Made by a program: the position numbers and the translations under genes. Positions 1 to 10,460 of a stretch of DNA of 10,460 nucleotides are shown here, piece by piece. Origin of the DNA: a virus. Taxonomy: Duplodnaviria; Heunggongvirae; Uroviricota; Caudoviricetes. The stretch's first letter is position 1. The number at the start of each line of letters is the position of its first letter. Under the pieces are notes generated by a model that worked only from the letters and a program-made list of their open reading frames with translations, was not told the origin of the DNA and did no database searches. The stretch lies in the IMG/VR virus record IMGVR_UViG_2585427739_000004. One strand, given 5' to 3'.

Positions 1-327
1 TTTTACGCGTATGACAGTCTCCGGAAGACGGTTGTTGCGCACGTATTCGGTGAGCGCACTATGGCGACGCTGGGGCGTCTTATGAGCCTGCTGTCACCCT
101 TTGACGTGGTGATATGGATGACGGATGGCTGGCCGCTGTATGAATCCCGCCTGAAGGGAAAGCTGCACGTAATCAGCAAGCGATATACGCAGCGAATTGA
201 GCGGCATAACCTGAATCTGAGGCAGCACCTGGCACGGCTGGGACGGAAGTCGCTGTCGTTCTCAAAATCGGTGGAGCTGCATGACAAAGTCATCGGGCAT
301 TATCTGAACATAAAACACTATCAATAA
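1..327 (+). CDS. insB: IS1 transposase InsB, C-terminal part (partial, start outside window)
   Basis: Frame 1 is open from base 1 and translates [51 protein letters not shown]...HYQ*, matching the recalled IS1 InsB C-terminus. The ORF-track start at 61 is only an internal Met. Confidence 0.9.
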
Positions 328-342
328 GTTGGAGTCATTACC
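1..342 (+). mobile_element. IS1: IS1 insertion sequence, 3' portion (5' part lies outside the window)
   Basis: InsB C-terminal reading frame runs 1-327 (...[20 protein letters not shown]). The element ends at 342 with the IS1 terminal inverted repeat (reverse complement of 320-342 = GGTAATGACTCCAACTTATTGAT). Confidence 0.95.
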
Positions 343-470
343 AGGCTCCTGATACAAATAGTTTTCTTCTAACAAATAAAGAATACTTATATGGTAAATT
401 TGGTATAAACGGATGGCAAAAATATGTACGATTCTTACGTGCATTCGTTGATGCGTATAAAAATTCCGAC

Positions 471-896
471 ATGATTTATACATATTTGCCTGGTGGTGAT
501 AATTGTACGCTTTCGGCAGACAATAGAATATTCATACCTATACTTGGTCTTGGGCTGATTAATGCAGTAAATGAAAGAGATGTTATAATTGTTAAGCAGT
601 GGCGAAAGCATGAGGGATATAGATATCTGCCATGCTTTGATATATTAAAAATACAGAATAAATTCTATGTAAAAATTAAATATAAAGAAGATGTTTTCTT
701 CCTCAGAAAAAACAAAGATCTTTTACAAGAACTTTCTGGGACAATAGATGTCATCGTAGGTTCTAGGTTTATAAAAGAACTGAAAGAAAGCAGGTCTTTC
801 TCTCGTGTAGAGATAAGCGAGTCAGAGTTATGGGGTATATCAAATAATCCTGTAAACCACGCTCACCAACGAAATCCAAACAAAAAGTGGTCATAA
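471..896 (+). CDS. hypothetical protein, AT-rich; probably a 3' fragment of a larger gene interrupted by IS1 (frame open back to 343)
   Basis: 141-codon ORF in markedly AT-rich DNA. The same frame has no stop between the IS1 boundary (343) and the ATG at 471, and there is no Shine-Dalgarno before 471. Followed immediately by a stem-loop plus T-tract. No recognisable motif. Confidence 0.5.
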   Translation: MIYTYLPGGDNCTLSADNRIFIPILGLGLINAVNERDVIIVKQWRKHEGYRYLPCFDILKIQNKFYVKIKYKEDVFFLRKNKDLLQELSGTIDVIVGSRFIKELKESRSFSRVEISESELWGISNNPVNHAHQRNPNKKWS

Positions 897-919
897 CCCG
901 CTCAGGCGGGTTTCATTTT
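897..919 (+). terminator. putative rho-independent terminator after the AT-rich ORF
   Basis: CCCGC-TCAG-GCGGG stem-loop (897-910) followed by TTTCATTTT, starting 1 nt after the stop codon. Confidence 0.5.
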
Positions 920-1039
920 CACGCAAACAAAAGAATAAACACTGCACTGTGTATTCATTCCAACGAGTGAATACACGGAGCAATGTCGCTCGTAACTAAA
1001 CAGGAGCCGACTTGTTCTGATTATTGGAAATCTTCTTTG

Positions 1040-1064
1040 CCCTCCAGTGTGAGGGAGATTTTTT
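1040..1064 (+). terminator. weak terminator-like hairpin in the leader upstream of ea10
   Basis: CCCTC-CAGTGT-GAGGG stem-loop, then AGA and a T6 run (1059-1064). The stem is short and a spacer separates it from the T-tract. Confidence 0.3.
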
Positions 1065-1084
1065 ATCTATGAGGATATGAATAG

Positions 1085-1453
1085 ATGTCAAACATCAAAA
1101 AATACATCATTGATTACGACTGGAAAGCATCAATAGAAATTGAAATCGACCATGACGTAATGACAGAGGAAAAACTTCACCAGATTAATAATTTCTGGTC
1201 AGACTCTGAATACCGACTCAATAAACACGGCTCTGTATTAAATGCTGTATTAATCATGCTGGCGCAACATGCTCTGCTTATAGCAATTTCAAGCGACTTA
1301 AATGCATATGGTGTTGTGTGTGAGTTCGACTGGAATGATGGAAATGGTCAGGAAGGATGGCCTCCAATGGATGGTAGCGAAGGAATAAGAATTACCAATA
1401 TCGATACATCAGGAATATTTGATCCAGATGATATGACTATCAAAGCCGCCTGA
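1085..1453 (+). CDS. ea10: lambda Ea10-like protein (122 aa)
   Basis: 122-aa ORF MSNIKKYIIDYDWKASIEIEIDHDV... matches recalled lambda Ea10 in sequence, length and position upstream of cIII. GAGGA Shine-Dalgarno at 1071-1075. Confidence 0.85.
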   Translation: MSNIKKYIIDYDWKASIEIEIDHDVMTEEKLHQINNFWSDSEYRLNKHGSVLNAVLIMLAQHALLIAISSDLNAYGVVCEFDWNDGNGQEGWPPMDGSEGIRITNIDTSGIFDPDDMTIKAA

Positions 1454-1476
1454 GCGCGGCGTTACCGCATACCAAT

Positions 1477-1500
1477 AACGCTTCACTCGAGGCGTTTTTC
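1477..1500 (+). terminator. putative rho-independent terminator between ea10 and cIII
   Basis: AACGCTTC-ACT-GAGGCGTT stem (8 bp with one G-U pair) followed by T5, 24 nt after the ea10 stop. Confidence 0.45.
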
Positions 1501-1525
1501 GTTATGTATAAATAAGGAGCACACC

Positions 1526-1690
1526 ATGCAATATGCCATTGCAGGGTGGCCTGTTGCTGGCTGCCCTTCCGAATCTTTACTTGAACGAATCACCCGTAAA
1601 TTACGTGACGGATGGAAACGCCTTATCGACATACTTAATCAGCCAGGAGTCCCAAAAAATGGATCAAACACTTATGGCTATCCAGACTAA
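1526..1690 (+). CDS. cIII: lambda CIII, FtsH protease inhibitor (54 aa)
   Basis: Manual translation from ATG 1526: [54 protein letters not shown], which is lambda CIII. AAGGAG Shine-Dalgarno at 1514-1519. Not in the ORF track because it is short. Confidence 0.92.
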   Translation: MQYAIAGWPVAGCPSESLLERITRKLRDGWKRLIDILNQPGVPKNGSNTYGYPD

Positions 1691-1802
1691 ATTCACTATC
1701 GCCACTTTTATTGGCGATGAAAAGATGTTTCGTGAGGCCGTCGACGCTTATAAAAAATGGATATTAATACTGAAACTGAGATCAAGCAAAAGCATTCACT
1801 AA
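1659..1802 (+). CDS. kil: lambda Kil, FtsZ-directed host killing protein (47 aa)
   Basis: [47 protein letters not shown] from ATG 1659 overlaps the 3' end of cIII in another frame, as in lambda. The track ORF 1533-1802 is this frame extended upstream. Confidence 0.9.
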
Positions 1803-2173
1803 CCCCCTTCCCTGTTTTCCTAATCAGCCCGGCATTTCGCGGACGATATTTTCACAGCTATTTCAGGAGTTCAGCCATGAGCGCTTATTACATTCAGGAT
1901 CGTCTTGAGGCTCAGAGCTGGGCGCGTCACTACCAGCAGATCGCCCGTGAAGAGAAAGAGGCAGAACTGGCAGACGACATGGAAAAAGGCCTGCCCCAGC
2001 ACCTGTTTGAATCGCTATGCATCGATCATTTGCAACGCCACGGGGCCAGCAAAAAAGCCATTACCCGTGCGTTTGATGACGATGTTGAGTTTCAGGAGCG
2101 CATGGCAGAACACATCCGGTACATGGTTGAAACTATTGCCCGCCACCAGGTTGATATTGATTCAGAGGTATAA
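1757..2173 (+). CDS. gam: lambda Gam, RecBCD inhibitor (138-aa long form; internal Met at 1877 gives the short form)
   Basis: [61 protein letters not shown]...VDIDSEV matches lambda Gam and overlaps the kil 3' end. Confidence 0.95.
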
Positions 2174-2178
2174 AACGG

Positions 2179-2964
2179 ATGAGTACAGCACTCGCAACGC
2201 TGGCAGGGAGGCTGGCTGAACGTGTCGGCATGGATTCTGTCGACCCACAGGAACTGATCACCACTCTTCGCCAGACGGCATTTAAAGGTGATGCCAGCGA
2301 TGCGCAGTTCATCGCATTGTTGATCGTCGCCAACCAGTACGGCCTTAATCCGTGGACGAAAGAAATTTACGCCTTCCCTGACAAGCAGAACGGCATCGTT
2401 CCGGTGGTGGGCGTTGATGGCTGGTCCCGTATCATCAATGAAAACCAGCAGTTTGATGGCATGGACTTTGAGCAGGACAATGAATCATGTACATGCCGGA
2501 TTTACCGCAAGGACCGTAATCATCCGATCTGCGTTACCGAGTGGATGGATGAATGCCGCCGCGAACCATTCAAAACCCGCGAAGGCAGAGAAATCACCGG
2601 ACCGTGGCAGTCGCATCCCAAACGGATGTTACGGCATAAAGCCATGATTCAGTGTGCCCGTCTGGCCTTCGGATTTGCTGGTATCTATGACAAGGATGAA
2701 GCCGAGCGCATTGTCGAAAATACCGCATACACTGCAGAACGTCAGCCGGAACGCGACATCACTCCGGTTAACGATGAAACCATGCAGGAGATTAACACTA
2801 TGCTGATTGCCCTGGACAAAACATGGGATGACGACTTATTGCCGCTCTGTTCCCAGATATTTCGCCGCGACATTCGCGCATCGTCAGAACTGACACAGGC
2901 CGAAGCAATGAAAGCTCTTGGATTCCTGAAACAGAAAGCCTCTGAACAGAAGGTGGCTGCATGA
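2179..2964 (+). CDS. bet: lambda Bet (Red-beta), single-strand annealing recombinase (261 aa)
   Basis: [65 protein letters not shown]... over full length. Starts 5 nt after the gam stop and shares the ATGA overlap with exo. Confidence 0.97.
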
Positions 2965-3641
2965 CACCGGACATTATCCTGCAGCGTACCGGGATCGACG
3001 TGAGAGCTGTCGAACAGGGGGATGATGCATGGCACAAATTACGGCTCGGCGTCATCACCGCTTCAGAAGTTCACAACGTGATAGCAAAGCCCCGCTCAGG
3101 AAAGAAGTGGCCTGACATGAAAATGTCCTACTTCCACACCCTGCTGGCTGAGGTTTGCACCGGTGTGGCTCCGGAAGTTAACGCTAAGGCGCTGGCCTGG
3201 GGAAAACAGTACGAGAACGACGCCAGAACCCTGTTTGAATTCACTTCCGGCGTGAATGTTACTGAATCCCCGATCATCTATCGCGACGAAAATATGCGCA
3301 CTGCCTGCTCTCCCGATGGTTTATGCAGTGACGGCAACGGCCTTGAACTGAAATGCCCGTTTACCTCCCGGGATTTCATGAAATTCCGGCTCGGTGGTTT
3401 CGAGGCAATAAAATCGGCTTACATGGCCCAGGTGCAGTACAGCATGTGGGTGACGCGAAAAGATGCCTGGTACTTTGCCAACTATGACCCGCGCATGAAG
3501 CGTGAAGGCCTGCATTATGTCGTGATTGAGCGGAATGAAAAGTACATGGCGAGTTTTGACGAGATGGTGCCGGAGTTCATCGAAAAAATGGACGAGGCAC
3601 TGGCTGAAATTGGTTTTGTATTTGGGGAGCAATGGCGATGA
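2961..3641 (+). CDS. exo: lambda Exo (Red-alpha), 5'-3' dsDNA exonuclease (226 aa)
   Basis: [40 protein letters not shown]... at full length. Catalytic D119, E129 and K131 are present (SPDG...LELKCP). Confidence 0.97.
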
Positions 3642-3657
3642 CGCATCCTCACGATAA

Positions 3658-4071
3658 TATCCGGGTACCGCCTGTAAAGTGTTGCGTGATCAAATAGGCA
3701 AGCATCACAAATGGGTGTTTGTACATACCAAGGCGGCTAAGCGAGCAGATGGAACATCAACGCCTGCGGTCAGGAAGATGCGCATCGACAGCAAGACATC
3801 ATGGCTATCAGCTTGTCGTCGTGCAGGAATTGAAGATTTCCGTTTCCATGACCTCAGACACACCTGGGCAAGCTGGCTGATTCAGTCAGGCGTCCCATTA
3901 TCAGTGCTTCAGGAAATGGGCGGATGGGAGTCCATAGAAATGGTTCGTAGGTATGCTCACCTTGCGCCTAATCATTTGACAGAGCATGCGAGGAAAATAG
4001 ACGACATTTTTGGTGATAATGTCCCAAATATGTCCCACTCTGGAATTATGGAGGATATAAAGAAGGCGTAA
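3658..4071 (+). pseudogene. C-terminal fragment (about 137 codons) of a prophage tyrosine integrase; N-terminal two-thirds deleted
   Basis: Frame opens at 3658 right after a stop and only 17 bp after exo. Contains the catalytic-domain motifs [10 protein letters not shown] and VRRYAHL (Tyr nucleophile) but no N-terminal or core-binding domain. Ends 15 bp from the 3' end of argU, convergent with it. Confidence 0.8.
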
Positions 4072-4086
4072 CTGATTGAATTGTAA

Positions 4087-4163
4087 TGGCGCGCCCTGCA
4101 GGATTCGAACCTGCGGCCCACGACTTAGAAGGTCGTTGCTCTATCCAACTGAGCTAAGGGCGC
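4087..4163 (-). tRNA. argU: tRNA-Arg, anticodon UCU (reads AGA)
   Basis: Reverse complement folds as a cloverleaf: GCGCCCT acceptor stem, anticodon stem ACGAC/GTCGT with loop CTTCTAA, TTCGAAT T-loop, 3' GCCA. Matches recalled E. coli argU (77 nt). Confidence 0.95.
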
Positions 4164-4189
4164 GTTGATACCGCAATGCGGTGTAATCG

Positions 4190-4225
4190 CGTGAATTATA
4201 CGGTCAACCCTTGCTGAGTCAATGG
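4190..4225 (-). promoter_or_regulatory. putative sigma70 promoter of argU with a GC-rich discriminator
   Basis: On the - strand: TTGACT (4222-4217), 16-nt spacer, TATAAT (4200-4195), then TCACGCG discriminator, about 30 nt upstream of the mature tRNA 5' end. Confidence 0.6.
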
Positions 4226-4405
4226 CTTTTGATCTGGTTGCTGAACAAGTGAACGACCGCGTCTGATTTTCTGATTTATTTCGCTATAGTGGCAAACAAA
4301 CGCACACCGCTGCGCGTCTGAATCAAGAAAACCCGTATTTTCATGTATCAAAGTACAATTTACCGCCCTAACGGAAAATTGTCCGCTCCTATGAGACTGG
4401 TAACT

Positions 4406-5038
4406 ATGAAACCAACGTCGGTGATCATTATGGATACTCATCCTATCATCAGAATGTCTATTGAAGTTCTGTTGCAAAAAAACAGTGAATTGCAGATTGT
4501 CCTGAAAACGGATGATTACCGCATAACCATCGATTATCTCCGAACCCGTCCTGTTGATTTAATCATTATGGATATAGACTTGCCCGGAACAGACGGTTTT
4601 ACCTTCCTGAAAAGGATCAAACAAATCCAGAGCACAGTGAAAGTGTTATTTTTATCATCGAAATCAGAATGCTTTTATGCTGGCAGAGCGATACAAGCTG
4701 GTGCTAACGGTTTTGTCAGTAAATGCAATGATCAGAATGATATTTTTCATGCCGTTCAGATGATCCTCTCCGGATACACGTTTTTTCCTAGCGAAACGCT
4801 TAACTATATAAAAAGCAATAAATGTAGTACGAATAGTTCAACGATCACTGTGCTATCTAATCGTGAAGTGACCATATTACGTTATCTGGTTAGCGGATTA
4901 TCTAATAAAGAAATTGCCGATAAGTTATTACTTAGCAATAAAACAGTTAGTGCGCATAAATCTAATATTTATGGCAAGCTAGGTTTGCATTCAATTGTAG
5001 AGCTTATCGACTACGCCAAATTATACGAATTAATATAA
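4406..5038 (+). CDS. fimZ: LuxR/NarL-family response regulator FimZ (210 aa)
   Basis: MKPTSVIIMDTHPIIRMSIEVLLQKNSELQIVLKTDDYRITIDYLRTRPVDLIIMDIDLPGTDGF... with a receiver domain and C-terminal helix-turn-helix. Matches recalled E. coli FimZ and sits next to argU as in K-12. The track ORF starts 21 codons earlier, which I treat as an extension. Confidence 0.88.
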   Translation: MKPTSVIIMDTHPIIRMSIEVLLQKNSELQIVLKTDDYRITIDYLRTRPVDLIIMDIDLPGTDGFTFLKRIKQIQSTVKVLFLSSKSECFYAGRAIQAGANGFVSKCNDQNDIFHAVQMILSGYTFFPSETLNYIKSNKCSTNSSTITVLSNREVTILRYLVSGLSNKEIADKLLLSNKTVSAHKSNIYGKLGLHSIVELIDYAKLYELI

Positions 5039-5040
5039 TA

Positions 5041-5556
5041 TTAATTATAATTGATCATAAATATCGCATCCGCTTTCGCCACACCTGGCCGAACACCGCT
5101 GGCTAACGCTCGATAATTGGCAAAAAAGTTTAGTGTGACATTGCCATTTGCATCTACTTCCTCAGTCGGGCTCGCCTCCCCCAGTGCGAGCCGGGAGCGA
5201 TCGCTATTACGTAATTCGATGGCGACGGTTTGTGCCATTGCGGGATCATCCAGAGCCAGCAGGTTGGTATCGGATGCCGGCGTTCCCGTAAATAAAATCG
5301 CAACTGAACCCGGAGGACATCCCTCCAGCCGCAGGCTAAAAGGGACGAGTGCCGTGGTATCGCCAGCGTTCAGTAATTGTGTCGTAGGCCATCTGCCTAA
5401 ATCTACCGTCTTATCAATATCCGCTGTGTTTACGGTACAGGAGAAATCAACAACGTTACCGTGCAAATTGATATTAATCGTTCCTAAAGGGTCAGCTGCC
5501 CATCCACTGGAACTCCACAGTAACCCGCAGAAACAGCTAAAGAGTACTCTTCTCAT
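5041..5556 (-). CDS. sfmF: fimbrial-like adhesin/minor subunit SfmF (171 aa)
   Basis: MRRVLFSCFCGLLWSSSGWAADPLGTININ... with signal peptide. GGAGA Shine-Dalgarno 5 nt upstream of the start codon at 5554-5556. The longer 236-aa track ORF overlaps sfmH and is rejected. Confidence 0.85.
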   Translation of the reverse strand: MRRVLFSCFCGLLWSSSGWAADPLGTININLHGNVVDFSCTVNTADIDKTVDLGRWPTTQLLNAGDTTALVPFSLRLEGCPPGSVAILFTGTPASDTNLLALDDPAMAQTVAIELRNSDRSRLALGEASPTEEVDANGNVTLNFFANYRALASGVRPGVAKADAIFMINYN

Positions 5557-5566
5557 TCTCCGTACC

Positions 5567-6574
5567 TCATTGATAATCGACGCGTAAATACCCCAGCGCG
5601 CTAAACGGCCCCTCGGTCGGTTTTTGACCGGTAATACTGATAGGCCAGGCGCGAAGTGTGACATTGGCTGCCGCAGCTGCATCCAGACGGAAAGGAATAA
5701 CGCTATTGAGATCGTTAGGCGTAATCGGCGTATCGTTCTGATCGGCGACAATAAAACCTAAATCCTGATTGTCCGACACCATCGCCTGACCAGAAACGGC
5801 ACTGGCTTCCAGACGCATTGTTAAATAAGCCTGCGCAGCAACATTCGTACATTTGACCGCAATGCTCTTGGTTTGCGGCATGACACCAGCAGGTCGATTA
5901 CCCGGCCCTGCCGCACTAAATAACGATGCGCCGATATCACCAAAATCAAATTCAACAATCTGCCCGGCATTTAATTCGCAGTTTTGCGGTACTTCAACCC
6001 GGCCACCAAAACTAATGGTATAAACAGGTGTAACCAACGGATCGTAAGGCGTTGATGTCACATACACGGTAAACATCACCTGTCTGGGGATCTCCACTAT
6101 GTTAATAAAGGGACGAATAACCTTTAAACGAAATATTAAACGAGAATCCATCACCCCGAATGGAAGGTTTTGCGAAACGTTAGGATCTGTTCCCATCCGA
6201 ATATAATTTTGCGGGGGGAACTGAATATCCATAACACTATCAACCAGACTCATCGCACCTAATAGATAATCATGTAATTGCATATATTTATAATTATCGA
6301 TAGTTTCCTGAACAATAAAGTTGGTGACATAACTACGGTATGTATAATTCACCAGCGTGCCGGGTGGACAAATTGCTGACACACCTACCCAGCCGGATTT
6401 TTCCGGTAAAACAACAATCTGCCCTGGCTGGTTATTGGTGCTATTAAAGACATTTGAGAGATCATAGTGTTCATCTTCTGCTACGCCAGTACTATTTGCA
6501 CAAACAGTAGCCCAGGATATGTTTGTTAACCACAAACATGCCATCGCCAATAATAATCTGCAGATTATCTTCAT
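5567..6574 (-). CDS. sfmH: fimbrial minor subunit SfmH (335 aa as called; alternative start 10 codons downstream)
   Basis: MKIICRLLLAMACLWLTNISWA... signal peptide, sfm operon order. Confidence 0.85.
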   Translation of the reverse strand: MKIICRLLLAMACLWLTNISWATVCANSTGVAEDEHYDLSNVFNSTNNQPGQIVVLPEKSGWVGVSAICPPGTLVNYTYRSYVTNFIVQETIDNYKYMQLHDYLLGAMSLVDSVMDIQFPPQNYIRMGTDPNVSQNLPFGVMDSRLIFRLKVIRPFINIVEIPRQVMFTVYVTSTPYDPLVTPVYTISFGGRVEVPQNCELNAGQIVEFDFGDIGASLFSAAGPGNRPAGVMPQTKSIAVKCTNVAAQAYLTMRLEASAVSGQAMVSDNQDLGFIVADQNDTPITPNDLNSVIPFRLDAAAAANVTLRAWPISITGQKPTEGPFSALGYLRVDYQ

Positions 6575-6586
6575 TGATAATTTCCT

Positions 6587-9196
6587 TTATGAGCCAGGAT
6601 GTGTGCAAACTGCCGAAATAACTGTGACGGCTTGCTGTAAGCTTTGCTTCGGCAATACATAGTGCGCAATGCAGCGTGAGTTCGCGCCGTCTCCCCACTG
6701 AACCAGTAATTCACCAGACAATGGCGCACCACTTAAATAAACTTGCCCGTCATCACCCACCATACTGGTTATTCCGGTACTGTTTTCCCGTACCAGTGAT
6801 CCAAACGGCACCGGTTTTCTGCCCTGGGTAACGGTAATGAGCGCCCGCACGCCTATGCGGGTATCAAAATTGGCACGAACCAACGCGCCTTGCGTCGGCA
6901 CAACGCTGCTAATATTTTTTTCAACATCGATGGAATTCCCCATCGTATTGGTATCAAGCGCGATACGGTTATACCGATAAACCGTGGCATACGGCATCAC
7001 CGCATAGCCGCGCCAGTCGGTTAAAATGCCAGTTTGATTTTCAATGCGTACACCGCCTGCGCCAGGCGCTTTAATCAAAACATTGGTATCCCCTAAAGGC
7101 TGGCTCAGCGTTATGCCATTTTCATGCCCGACCACACCGCCAGACAGCTGCCAGTTAACGTCATGTTGATCGCGGTCGTAGTTATACCCGCCCCCCAGCG
7201 TACCGTAAGCGGCCTGCCAGTTTGCCGTGGCGCTGCCCGTATACCCATTATTCGAGGTATCACCCTGGCTTACGTGATAACTCAGGTTGTGGCCTTCCAG
7301 TAAGGTCCCACCTACACCTGCCAGCCAGCTATTTTGCCCGTTGCTGTTACGGTTGGCGTTAAAGGAGGCATAAGCGCGGTCGAGCGCATTTTCCCGGGTG
7401 TAGCGACGTTTGGTCAGAACATTGAAAGGCACTGAAACATTAAGTCCGACAATACGTTCGTTATCGGGGATCCCTACAGATTCATTCCACGAAAATGAGA
7501 GTGAATAACTGATGCCAACCCAGCTGCTGGTATACCCCACCTGATACCAGGTATCTGAATCCGAAGTATTCCAGTATTTTTGATGGGTACCAGAGATATA
7601 AAGCGAGCCAAAGTCATTAAGTGATTGTGAAATATTTAACTGCAAACGGTCTTTACGGCTAAAGCGTAAATTGTGGTAATTCACGATTATCGGTTCATCG
7701 CGATGCTCACCGTCGTAATCGTAATCATATTCGTACCCCTCCATTCGACGATACGCAACATCATCAAGGGTATAAAAACCTTGTGTCGAATAGCGGTAAC
7801 CCATTAACTGAAAATTGGTGCCGAAGGTGTTCATCGATTTCGCATAGAGGAAGCGAATGGAATCCCCCTCATGACGACTGTCGTCGGCTAACTGACTGCG
7901 CGCATGGGTCACATCCAGCGACACTGTGCCCCAGTTCCCGAGGTTGCGCCCCAGCCCTAATAAAAAGGCGGTGTAATTGGCAGATAATTGCGTCCCGCCG
8001 TAGGCAGTAAATTCCTGTGGTAAACCGCCGAGTGCCGTACCCTGAAAAAAGAAAGGCGATGATTGCTGACTATTACCGCTACGAAAATCGCCCGCCGTCA
8101 GGTCAAATTTGAAACGCCCTTCGCGTTGTAAAATTGGCACTGTTGAATACGGAATTGTGTAATTCTGCTGATTACCATCGCGCTCGTCGATGGTGACGTC
8201 CAGATCGCCATTTGAAGATGTCGGGTGCAAATCTGTAATTTCAAAAGCGCCGGGGGAAACATAGCTTTGATAGATAATAAAACCATTTTGCCGAATCGTT
8301 AGCTGGGCCGCCGTACGGGCAATCCCACGTACTGTTGGGGCAAACCCTTGCTGGCTATCAGGATACATATTATCGGAAGAGTAAAGCCGTATACCACGAA
8401 ATCCAACACCATCGAAAATATCACTTCCTGTATTGCCGTCTCCCATTACCAGTTCACTTTTCAGCGGAATAATGGCGCGCTGTACCCAGGTGCCAATATT
8501 ATTCCACTGTTCTGAATGATATCCATTTCCGCGAAAATAGTTCCAGGAACCATTGTTGCGTAAACGCCACGGGCCAATATTAATCCCGCTGAGCTCACTA
8601 AAAAAATAGCTATCGTTACCATTACCTCTGTTACCGGTGAAATTATAATTCAGGAGTAAAGCAGGAATACCTTCATCCCACTCTTCAGGCGGAATGTAAC
8701 CGTGAGCGCTACTCAACAACGCTATCTGAGGAATAGTGATGTTCAGGCGCATCGCTGCAAAATCAAAGTTAATTGTGGCATCAGGTACAGCTTTCAGTAA
8801 ATTGATGCATTTATTGTTTTGCTGCTGGGCTAACTCGGGAAATGCACTGCTATTAAGGCTAATTCGTTCAAGGAGTACCTGGTTAAAACAGGGCATTAAC
8901 CCACCTGATTTATCACCTGTATTTTCTGTTGTCGATTCAAATACGATATCCTGTGAACCAATGAACTCATCATTACGCCAGAGATCTACCCGATACACGC
9001 CCGCAGGTTGATGATTACCTCTCTCAAAGCGCGATAAATCAGCAACGGATGTGCCATTCTCTAATAAAAATGCCGGGTTGAAATAACTTTCCGCATAGCT
9101 TAAAAAGGAGGGTAAAATGGCAAGAGATGAATAACAAATTCCGGCCAGACACCAGGTATACCTCTGCGGAATATCCGTAGTAGTGGGTATTTTCAT
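6587..9196 (-). CDS. sfmD: outer-membrane fimbrial usher SfmD (869 aa)
   Basis: 869-aa ORF of typical usher length with a C-terminal beta-barrel-like region rich in G/Y/N/S/T; lies between the chaperone and minor-subunit genes. Confidence 0.9.
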
Positions 9197-9226
9197 AATT
9201 AGCTCTGATATTGTCAGATGATTCGG

Positions 9227-9919
9227 TTAGTTTAAGTTCACTTCTCTGACCGGGGTTACTGAACCATAATCATTAACGGTCTGAAATTTCAGCTTTCCCT
9301 GCACTCCTGAGGGTAAGGGAATTTGTGAATTAACTCTGGGTGCAGCCATAGCATTCCCCAACTTTTGGTTGCCCACTTGTAAGTTAACCAGAGTGACATA
9401 AAAAGGTGAGGGATTATGAACATTGATATAGTTACCGGATCGCGAAAACTTGAGTGTGTCCGGTGCTTCTGCGGGTAATTCTTGTAATTGAATTAGACGG
9501 AGAAATAATTTCATGCGCGATAAAATCGCCAGTTGCAAAACATTCCTGCCGTTCAATGCATTTTTATCTACCGAAGGGATCGTCTTAACATTCATCCAGA
9601 ACAGAGACTCACGATCTGCTGCCAGCGGTGGACCGGTGTAAATAATACGCAAGGTATTTTCGCTTTTGGGTTCACTAACAAACAGTGGCGGTGTAATGAT
9701 GAATGACTTTTCTTTTACACCGCTGCTGTTTTCAATCCACGAATTGACCAGAAAGCGCTCATTGGTATGGCTATTTCTAATCCATACCGCAGTCTGTTTA
9801 GCATCAGCGGGATAAATAATACGCGTGGCACCTAATGCGATCCCTCCGGCAGCATGGGCGCTGGCCGAAATGATTAAATAAAATATAATGAGCATCAATA
9901 ACTTTATTTTAGTCATCAT
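9227..9919 (-). CDS. sfmC: periplasmic fimbrial chaperone SfmC (230 aa)
   Basis: [42 protein letters not shown]... signal peptide and PapD-like chaperone features; 230 aa as in K-12 SfmC. Confidence 0.9.
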
Positions 9920-10164
9920 AGTTAATACGCCTTGTGTATTCCTGACGGCAAAAATAAGAAATATAAAGAAATGATTGCTTTGGTTTCTTACAACACATCA
10001 TTCCCTTTTCATTTAATAAAGCGGCATGATACAAAGTGAACATGATTTCGATTTACATTGCCACCATACCGCTTCAGACAACCGGTACATTACTTTGTTA
10101 TAAGACGTGGGTGATGCTGCCAACTTACTGATTTAGTGTATGATGGTGTTTTTGAGGTGCTCCA

Positions 10165-10440
10165 GTGGCTTCTGTTTCTATCAGCTGTCCCTCCTGTTCA
10201 GCTACTGACGGGGTGGTGCGTAACGGCAAAAGCACCGCCGGACATCAGCGCTATCTCTGCTCTCACTGCCGTAAAACATGGCAACTGCAGTTCACTTACA
10301 CCGCTTCTCAACCCGGTACGCACCAGAAAATCATTGATATGGCCATGAATGGCGTTGGATGCCGGGCAACTGCCCGCATTATGGGCGTTGGCCTCAACAC
10401 GATTTTACGTCACTTAAAAAACTCAGGCCGCAGTCGGTAA
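10165..10440 (+). CDS. insA: IS1 InsA, transposition inhibitor and N-terminal part of the InsAB' transposase (91 aa)
   Basis: [91 protein letters not shown], apparently with a GTG start. Confidence 0.93.
10414..10424 (+). other. IS1 programmed -1 ribosomal frameshift motif (A6C) joining insA to insB'
   Basis: TTAAAAAACTC at 10414-10424, just before the insA stop; this is the known IS1 slippery site. Confidence 0.8.
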
Positions 10441-10460
10441 CCTCGCGCATACAGCCGGGC

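Follow-up and report, generated by a model that had tools for sequence, protein, structure and literature searches.

Modules of the lambda Red type, counted when at least 80% of the length is present, occur in 1,363 of 5,426 complete Escherichia coli genomes, and intact but silent recombination genes within a defective prophage are a textbook situation. DLP12-family prophages use the tRNA gene argU as their attachment site, and the DLP12 of E. coli K-12 retains intD and xisD, whereas bet, gam and the greater part of exo are gone. Functionally, an orphaned and silent module finds its closest parallel in the Rac prophage of the same strain, a defective element in which an exonuclease and annealase pair remains intact. 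These recET genes are present, yet unexpressed unless an sbcA mutation arises or they are captured into lambda (lambda-rev), and lambda itself recombines readily with DLP12 (PMC3945230).

The window described here, by which we mean the whole stretch of 10,460 nucleotides that was analysed, carries a block of the lambda kind between an insertion sequence and a tRNA gene (Table 1). From 1085 to 3641 it runs through ea10, cIII, kil, gam, bet and exo, and it is the last part of the pL operon of a lambdoid prophage of the DLP12 family that sits at argU. The reading that we favour, with a probability of about 80%, is that the block is a passive fragment of the early-left (pL) operon, orphaned in its transcription, which was left intact by the youth of its clone and by recent copying from other phages.

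Table 1. Features of the window around the Red block, with strand and supporting evidence
Feature	Position	Strand	Evidence
IS1 right end (3' part of insB; IRR ending ...GGAGTCATTACC at 342)	1..342	+	99-100% match to IS1 copies
3' part, cut by IS1, of a 289-aa phage gene (phrog_12139)	343..896	+	Residual ORF 471-896; PHROG match 5.5e-204
Intrinsic-terminator-like hairpin directly after the truncated gene	895..912	+	Terminator scan; common to the 3' flank of HK022 nun (alignment)
Recombination tract acquired from another lambdoid phage	1040..3182	.	Common to NT1F25 only, except six sites at 1477-2382
ea10 (DUF2528)	1085..1453	+	Full length, 122 aa; 3 nt differences from lambda; Pfam PF10800, 1.8e-46
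Terminator-like hairpin between ea10 and cIII	1477..1496	+	Terminator scan
cIII thermoregulator RNA	1513..1571	+	Rfam RF01804; 88.5 bits (gathering score 50)
cIII	1526..1690	+	54 aa; protein identical to lambda CIII; 1 nt difference, synonymous; Pfam PF02061
kil	1659..1802	+	47 aa; protein identical to lambda Kil; 1 nt difference, synonymous; Pfam PF06301
gam	1757..2173	+	138-aa long ORF from 1757; 4 amino-acid differences from lambda (long form), 8 nt differences; Pfam PF06064, 7.2e-64, residues 41-138
bet, single-strand annealing protein	2179..2964	+	261 aa; 4 amino-acid and 27 nt differences from lambda; Pfam PF03837 (RecT family), 2.7e-33
exo, 5'-3' dsDNA exonuclease	2961..3641	+	226 aa; 4 amino-acid and 18 nt differences from lambda; Pfam PF09588 (YqaJ), 6e-30
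Deletion junction, 'TA' microhomology	3666..3667	.	The two alignment blocks to the relatives L002 and L004 overlap by 2 bp there
intD-type integrase 3' stub	3668..4071	+	Last ~134 codons; ORF 3679-4071; 100% identical to the intD 3' end in L002 and L004
argU, tRNA-Arg(tct)	4087..4163	-	ARAGORN and Rfam tRNA

Compared with the Red region of phage lambda (NC_001416, 31348-33904), the window aligns without gaps from 925 to 3667 at 97.56% identity, with 67 mismatches. The first-pass annotation had called six full-length ORFs in lambda-like order and with lambda-like overlaps, together with an Exo that keeps the catalytic residues D119, E129 and K131. The alignment agrees on almost every count: the gene limits were correct, each length equals that of its lambda counterpart, there are no indels, frameshifts, nonsense codons or internal stops in any of the six, and the catalytic residues are present in the translation. 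The gene order holds, as does the ATGA shared by the bet stop and the exo start at 2961-2964, but the kil/gam overlap exists for the long Gam ORF only. A 98-aa Gam ORF (1877-2173), which is also the form annotated by PGAP, is intact as well, and it remains unaffected in the sister genomes and the near-complete relative where an additional T at 1860 breaks the long frame. Kil is the 47-aa ORF of the lambda annotation and not an 89-aa ORF. All six products match their Pfam families (DUF2528 for Ea10, Lambda_CIII, Lambda_Kil, Gam, the RecT family for Bet and YqaJ for Exo) far over the curated cut-offs. Genes, order and lengths are thus those of lambda at 97.6% nucleotide identity, with 0-4 amino-acid changes per protein and the cIII thermoregulator conserved, and a protein identical to the window Bet is encoded at four IMG/VR phage loci. 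Judged by their 98% identity to the lambda proteins and their catalytic residues, the Red proteins, if made, would very probably work.

Where the locus departs from lambda is in its surroundings. The block is severed upstream from pL, nutL and N, and downstream from the genes orf60a to xis and from the 5' part of int; it lies at argU and not at the lambda attB, and its integrase stub is of the intD type and not lambda int. The absence of N, pL and xis from the window and the reduction of int to a stub had been recognised at the first pass. So had an upstream IS1 and an AT-rich gene, both of which are there, but the latter is phage DNA too: it is what remains, 141 codons at the 3' end, of a 289-aa gene located just downstream of N in relatives and cut here by IS1. 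From 343 onward the window aligns to the related locus L004 from 15001 onward, within an 870-nt gene (14685-15554) that follows N, and the 289-aa product has no Pfam or PADLOC match. The IS1 end, in which ORF 61-327 is the C-terminus of InsB, is oriented toward the Red block, and it is here that the prophage is truncated on its upstream side. Its 9-bp target duplication, AGGCTCCTG, could be reconstructed from the left copy in Res13 and the right copy in the window.

On the downstream side, 2,208 bp present in relatives are missing. The gap opens 26 bp after the exo stop and closes near codon 253 of int, and it has taken away an orf60a-like gene, an orf63-like gene, a hypothetical gene, a traR-like gene, a DUF4222 gene, the remnant of xis and about the first 253 codons of int. 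In PKF8, XJ34 and CFSAN061772 the deletion seen in the window may have been inherited by descent or have arisen by recurrence. The Phage_integrase match of the remaining stub spans only profile positions 79-171 of 172. Beyond it stands argU, the sole known tRNA reading AGA, which would form the right-hand limit for viable deletions. Membership of the DLP12 family follows from an intD-type integrase abutting tRNA-Arg(tct) beside fimZ and the sfm genes, and the argU-fimZ-sfm order is present in all relatives. Attachment site and integrase family are those of DLP12 in K-12, where an exo fragment annotated as 'exonuclease' is 100% identical to window 3467-3669; the pattern of loss is reversed, the window having a complete Red module, with int and xis destroyed. 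An inducible prophage would need a complete int and xis together with immunity and replication functions; int and xis were hit by the 2,208-bp deletion, and the window contains none of cI, cro, O, P and N.

A block so placed has few prospects of being transcribed. Expression from pL with antitermination through N and nutL would draw on elements of which the window holds none, and a terminator scan found three terminator-like hairpins upstream of cIII, two of them listed in Table 1 and another at 1040-1055. With pL, nutL and N gone and these hairpins ahead of it, the block is in all likelihood silent, or transcribed only at a low level by polymerase reading out of IS1. Scanning for a strong promoter upstream of ea10 to exo yielded none that was convincing (nine sites against 7.0 expected), and the best plus-strand sites (9 of 12) fall inside the truncated gene. 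IS1 creates fusion promoters at some insertion sites (PMC9330008), and low-level transcription by way of IS1 is possible. The analogy with Rac has its limits here, since that prophage has RecE and RecT instead of Exo and Bet and occupies another site, and silence has been shown for recET, whereas for the window block it is an expectation.

The exact exo/int junction recurs in 18 of the 5,426 complete E. coli genomes and is spanned by none of ~80 IMG/VR loci. Across 6.4 kb of chromosomal flank, the genomes that share it have 1-5 SNPs relative to the window (0.15-0.78 SNP per kb). They were isolated from people, pigs, dogs, birds and river water on several continents and are one young clone, within which 4.4 kb of control prophage DNA (Q-nin-porin) shows 1-4 mismatches. 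This low divergence supports the earlier proposal of very recent decay, and with so little of it an intact 2.5-kb block is expected by chance. In RefSeq sister genomes such as NT1F25, 13P484A, CH4784 and H2 the exo/int and IS1 junctions are identical to those of the window, and PGAP annotates Bet, a lambda exonuclease family protein, Gam, Kil, CIII and DUF2528, labelling the integrase stub 'missing N-terminus'. The window differs from its sisters in having an imported tract of the NT1F25 type and an sfm-side IS1 at 10110, the latter absent from all sister genomes examined.

Decay within the clone, surveyed in 17 of the 18 genomes, is still under way. Four genomes from as many countries have lost ea10 through the 5' part of exo, cIII, kil and gam included, leaving a methylase'-'exo junction with its breakpoint at window 3131; another (S1-INA-02-B) carries bet Q32*, and in three more (PCN061, AB66 and ES2) ea10 has been lost or truncated by deletions adjacent to IS1. 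The right flank of IS1 begins, depending on the genome, at window 343, 493, 1239, 1347 or 1402, its left neighbour ranges from N'/ninB to cusS, and even in the least-decayed sister genomes N is without its N-terminus. The main clone allele has acquired a de novo Kil W34C.

Dismantling is accompanied by overwriting, a feature that the first-pass annotation overlooked. Between 343 and 4200 the window differs from the main clone allele at 46 positions, of which 45 fall within 1040-3182 and one at 905, with none in 3183-4200. On this comparison of alleles the Red block of the window is itself a recent import by homologous recombination, which provides a second, selection-free reason for its pristine look. 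No exact donor of the tract was found in complete E. coli genomes, GenBank phages or 80 IMG/VR loci; the best match outside NT1F25 reached 99.1%, with 98.9% and 23 mismatches in 1,387 bp for the others. In NT1F25 there is an additional patch, the alleles of which circulate in IMG/VR phages, and CH4784 has recombination patches of its own. A second match to the Red query lies elsewhere in the NT1F25 genome (two places in the record), and this copy may be a resident donor of the tract.

The sister genomes allow the probable history of the locus to be reconstructed. First, a phage almost identical to the one that strain EM18-18-42 carries as a prophage would have integrated at argU, after which the 2,208-bp deletion at the 'TA' microhomology would have fixed the prophage in place. 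A second deletion, from ninB to N, would then have taken the immunity and replication region, pL, nutL and the 5' part of N, before IS1 entered the 289-aa gene between N and ea10 with its 9-bp target duplication. Deletions adjacent to IS1 would have spread outward both ways, to an extent that varies among descendants, and homologous recombination with other lambdoid phages would have overwritten parts of what was left, as the tract in the window exemplifies. That the six ORFs are intact is explained by the youth of the clone and by recent copying of their sequence from a functional phage, and host selection for Red is unneeded.

Selection for Red function had been offered at the first pass as the alternative to recent decay. 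Domestication of this sort would have the host keep gam-bet-exo by purifying selection, low-level Red activity being useful in repair, in recombination with incoming DNA, or in defence against or exploitation of superinfecting phages; we regard it as very unlikely. The dN/dS against lambda, a comparison suggested at the first pass, is low (0.088), but it cannot serve to test host selection, since the divergence arose almost entirely between working phages. On very small numbers throughout, constraint at the level of the host does not emerge from the de novo changes within the clone, of which 3 are synonymous and 4 are nonsynonymous or nonsense, against 5:14 in the sfm flank (Fisher p=0.64). 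When all lineage-private polymorphisms of gam-bet-exo are taken together, the ratio of 7 synonymous to 2 nonsynonymous against the same flank does speak for domestication (Fisher p=0.017), but it falls to 3:4 once phage-circulating alleles are removed. As four of the lineage-private sites carry alleles found in 11-38 of the ~80 IMG/VR loci, we attribute the excess to imported phage alleles, with some in-host constraint possible.

All four rightward deletions adjacent to IS1 are shorter than 1.06 kb and end before cIII (window 493-1402), a weak hint that cIII to exo is being spared; modelled on the lengths of the leftward deletions, such small sizes have roughly p~0.06, too weak a signal to build on. 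The block may also owe some protection from large deletions to its position, with an IS1 lying 740 bp before ea10 and argU 446 bp after exo. Domestication can further point to the 13 of 17 examined clone members that still carry gam, bet and exo, but it has to contend with the missing promoter and antitermination elements, the upstream hairpins, a clone too young for intactness to need explaining, and the presence in the same transcription unit of kil, a cell-division inhibitor by family annotation, which would probably make constitutive expression costly. With the module lost from four genomes, bet interrupted in another and de novo changes resembling those of a decaying flank, selection for Red function is unsupported.

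Retention might instead be owed to another gene of the block, with kil, cIII or gam serving stress tolerance or an anti-phage role of the kind proposed for other cryptic-prophage genes. The CIII and Kil proteins identical to those of lambda, the intact thermoregulator RNA and the rightward deletions that stop short of cIII would all suit this explanation, but the four Red-less genomes lost cIII, kil and gam as well, the main clone allele has the Kil substitution, and the promoter scan found no evident promoter, all of which makes it very improbable. We give an equally slim chance to a self-refreshing recombinase, in which weak Red expression, through IS1 read-through or a fusion promoter, would drive recombination with incoming lambdoid DNA and so renew the alleles of the block, letting it persist in the host. 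If true, this would explain several independent import tracts within 2.5 kb despite a flank with less than 1 SNP per kb. A laboratory origin, as an engineered recombineering cassette or a defective lambda prophage, fits a gene content that resembles the gam-bet-exo recombineering unit, but is effectively refuted by 67 mismatches to lambda over 2.7 kb, by a natural setting at argU, within a remnant of DLP12 type that has relatives among wild isolates of several continents, and by the absence of cI857, a selection marker or vector sequence.

The passive, orphaned operon piece that we favour is an ordinary lambdoid leftover, already annotated in the RefSeq sister genomes, and given the precedent of Rac recET it has little discovery value in itself. 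Its worth lies in the worked example that it provides within one young clone, where a grounding deletion, an IS1 insertion and two-way deletions adjacent to IS1 dismantle a prophage that homologous recombination with other phages repairs, at the same locus, during its dismantling. It also carries a caution: neither the intactness of ORFs nor a low dN/dS relative to a phage reference shows selection at the level of the host. For strains of this clone, the Red genes could complicate or assist recombineering, and superinfecting phages could rescue them.

The window is a segment of the E. coli chromosome at the argU/DLP12 attachment site, and comparison of annotations with LST200A (locus L002) and EM18-18-42 (locus L004), near-complete relatives at the same site, shows how the complete operon is arranged: N, a variable gene, ea10, cIII, kil, gam, bet, exo, orf60a-like and orf63-like genes, a hypothetical gene, a traR-like gene, DUF4222, a xis remnant, intD and argU. 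Aligned to lambda (NC_001416), as the first-pass annotation had suggested, window 925-3667 matches without gaps at 97.56% identity (67 mismatches); the nearest GenBank phages reach 98.9%. All six genes of the Red block (ea10 to exo, 1085-3641) have exactly the lambda lengths (Kil 47 aa) and no internal stops, their six proteins fall in the expected Pfam families, and they carry few amino-acid changes: two in Ea10, none in CIII or Kil, and four each in Gam, Bet and Exo. Protein comparison with lambda confirms that Exo keeps D119, E129 and K131, the bet stop and exo start share the ATGA overlap, and Rfam recognises the cIII thermoregulator; the earlier observation of six full-length, lambda-like ORFs is therefore correct. 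The kil/gam overlap it described holds with the 138-aa Gam ORF but depends on a frame (window 1757-1877) that is broken by a +T at 1860 both in EM18-18-42 and in the main allele of the clone described below. As the 98-aa ORF (1877-2173) is always intact, the +T notwithstanding, the shorter form is the conserved gam gene.

Coordinates of features at the argU locus and in related loci
Feature	Sequence	Coordinates	Strand	Remark
Right end of IS1	Window	1-342		Left of argU, after integrase stub, Red block and truncated AT-rich ORF
Terminator-like hairpins	Window	895-912, 1040-1055, 1477-1496	coding	Scan
cIII thermoregulator	Window	1513-1571		Rfam match
tRNA-Arg(tct) argU	Window	4087-4163	minus	
Left end of other IS1	Window	10110-10460		Right of argU, after fimZ, sfmF, sfmH, sfmD, sfmC
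Complete AT-rich gene	L004	14685-15554		289 aa, phrog_12139
HK022 ORF with same C-terminus	L104	7726-8070	minus	Unannotated in record
Recurrent deletion endpoints	L021	9134-9300		
Recurrent deletion endpoints	L022	9134-9300		
Recurrent deletion endpoints	L023	8940-9100		

Phage DNA on either side of the block was lost in different ways. Downstream, the alignment blocks flanking 3666/3667 overlap by 2 bp against both near-complete relatives (a 'TA' microhomology), and a deletion of 2,208 bp fuses intD at codon ~253 to sequence 26 bp beyond the exo stop; in Pfam, the integrase stub left behind matches the integrase domain over its C-terminal part only. Upstream, the sequence of the IS1 terminates at 342. 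In the sister genome Res13 this IS1 has a left flank that ends at L004 15009 and in the window its right flank begins at L004 15001, an overlap that yields a 9-bp target duplication, AGGCTCCTG, as expected for simple IS1 insertion. Res13 and ES2, the least-decayed sister genomes, have an N that is missing its N-terminus and has ninB fused to it, and therefore the immunity/replication region, including pL and nutL, had already gone.

The AT-rich gene cut by this IS1 does lie upstream, as first annotated, but is itself phage DNA: ORF 471-896 corresponds to the final 141 codons of a gene that encodes 289 aa and sits immediately 3' of N in a relative; the product of this gene has no match in Pfam or PADLOC. 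Its C-terminus, VNHAHQRNPNKKWS, shares 14 identical residues with that of an HK022 ORF which we take to be Nun, given a PHROG 'Nun-like' match (E 4e-5); in Nun, the KKW motif seen in this tail is what has been implicated in transcription arrest. At the DNA level, homology to HK022 begins at ~window 851, takes in the terminator hairpin and ends at ~963, which places a mosaic joint inside the coding sequence, with a Nun-type tail on an unrelated protein.

The exact exo/int junction occurs in 18 of 5,426 complete E. coli genomes, 17 of which entered the comparisons. Across 6,443 bp of integrase stub and chromosomal flank (3667-10109) these differ from the window by 1-5 SNPs, against 1.6-10 SNPs per kb for relatives on other backgrounds, and they are one young clone, with pig, dog, chicken, frog-farm, river-water and human isolates from several continents. 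The very recent decay first proposed is thus supported by a clone flank at 0.15-0.78 SNPs per kb. Within the clone the remnant is being taken apart. What lies to the left of IS1 varies: the 5' portion of the AT-rich gene plus N' and ninB (Res13), N' (ES2), NinX (300081), DUF1398 (CH4784, 13P484A, EC190486), IS3/ybcH (NT1F25) or cusS (H2, 127, KMi012, S1-INA-02-B, PCN061, AB66). The right-hand IS1 flank begins at window 343, 493, 1239, 1347 or 1402, depending on the genome, so that three genomes have lost ea10 in whole or in part; such a series anchored at an IS end is what IS-adjacent deletions leave behind (PMC11708052). In a second branch (W21, GPEC206-621, BKQ37E, 2015-01-2097) a deletion joining methylase' to 'exo removes ea10 through exo to window 3131, and in S1-INA-02-B C2272T creates bet Q32*. 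The sfm fimbrial operon (4343-9919, fimZ to sfmC) is also decaying in the clone, with IS1 or IS2 inserted in sfmA, sfmC, sfmD or sfmF of sister genomes, a nonsense allele in sfmH of 300081, and a change private to the window, sfmD V669G (A7191C). The two IS1 ends of the window, IRR at 342 and IRL at 10110, belong to like-oriented copies that flank the 9.8-kb segment from Red block through argU and fimZ to sfmFHDC, in the manner of a composite transposon; the copy at 10110 is absent from all 17 sister genomes, whose sfm-region IS1 copies sit at other positions. A query with the whole window gave 33-40 matches in each genome, most of them probably IS1 copies.

What the first-pass annotation overlooked is that the block owes its pristine look partly to recent import by homologous recombination. 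Between 343 and 4200, 46 sites distinguish the window from the main clone allele, 45 of them in 1040-3182, one at 905 and none in 3183-4200. The main allele is ancestral: only 4 sites separate it from the EM18-18-42 prophage over the 3.9 kb compared, and the Red-deleted branch carries the main-allele base at 3182. The window's tract is common to NT1F25 only, with 6 differing sites clustered in 1477-2382; four NT1F25 alleles, including a kil stop-loss, occur in 11-38 of ~80 IMG/VR lambdoid loci, which marks them as imports too. Patches specific to CH4784 lie between 1940 and 3318, with one more in a 2.2 kb head-tail/ynfO/DUF1398 remnant (L001 9430-11592; 18 mismatches, 0-1 in clone mates), and this strain has therefore recombined with another lambdoid phage in at least two regions; as a control, a 4.4-kb stretch of prophage DNA outside the block (Q-nin-porin) showed only 1-4 mismatches across the clone. 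No exact donor of the imported tract was found among complete E. coli genomes, GenBank phages and IMG/VR loci (best match 99.1%). Lambda-like phages have been shown experimentally to recombine with DLP12-type remnants (PMC3945230). Kil (1659-1823) is variable within the clone: the main allele carries W34C (G1760T), which is de novo and absent from IMG/VR loci covering the site, and the NT1F25 stop-loss (A1802C), giving a 54-aa Kil, is present in 12 of 77. EM18-18-42, nearest to the ancestral prophage, is itself beginning to decay, PGAP flagging intD as interrupted by an internal stop and quuD as frameshifted (L004 19776-20939 and 7591-7973); its flank lies 7.8 SNP per kb from the window, implying that the same phage entered different backgrounds recently.

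Selection for Red in the host, the other explanation first offered, is not supported. The dN/dS of the block against lambda (0.088) reflects constraint in phages, not in this host. Clone-private changes in gam-bet-exo (7 synonymous, 2 nonsynonymous or nonsense) do differ from coding changes in the 3667-10109 flank (5 and 14, two of these SNPs in the int stub; Fisher p=0.017). Once alleles also circulating in phages, probably imports, are removed, however, the de novo set from ea10 to exo is 3 synonymous to 4 nonsynonymous or nonsense, not distinguishable from the flank on these very small counts (p=0.64). Taken with the outright loss of the block in four of the 17 genomes and a nonsense allele in one more, this gives no positive evidence of host-level selection; intact ORFs at <1 SNP per kb are the neutral expectation. 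In the other direction there is a weak hint, as all four rightward IS1 deletions halt before cIII.

In a functional phage, transcription of these genes starts at pL and depends on N/nutL antitermination to continue through the leftward terminators. Because pL, nutL and N are gone from this remnant, a consensus scan found no convincing promoter for the block, and terminator-like hairpins are present, the block is most likely silent or weakly read through from IS1. IS1 can create fusion promoters at some insertion sites (PMC9330008), and silence is thus an inference. The best analogy is Rac recET, intact but unexpressed, which can be activated by sbcA mutations or capture into lambda (PMC3945230). 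The presence of kil in the same transcription unit would argue against constitutive expression. Position between IS1 and argU (446 bp 3' of exo) may passively protect the block from large deletions, since argU is, to our knowledge, the sole reader of AGA codons.

Deletion endpoints in window 3660-3734 recur on unrelated chromosomal backgrounds (flank 8-10 SNP per kb). PKF8 and XJ34 break on the exo side at the window's GGGTA and on the int side at 3695 and 3734; CFSAN061772 shares the window's int-side breakpoint, its left endpoint lying inside bet (2770) at an imperfect 8-bp repeat, TCCGG(T/G)TA. The recurrence may mark a hotspot, or else an older junction that spread horizontally and then underwent secondary deletion.

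With length coverage of at least 80%, lambda-type Red blocks occur in 1,363 of the 5,426 complete genomes, and PGAP has already annotated this remnant in sister genomes; it is ordinary and already known, and the locus is a clear small example of prophage decay.
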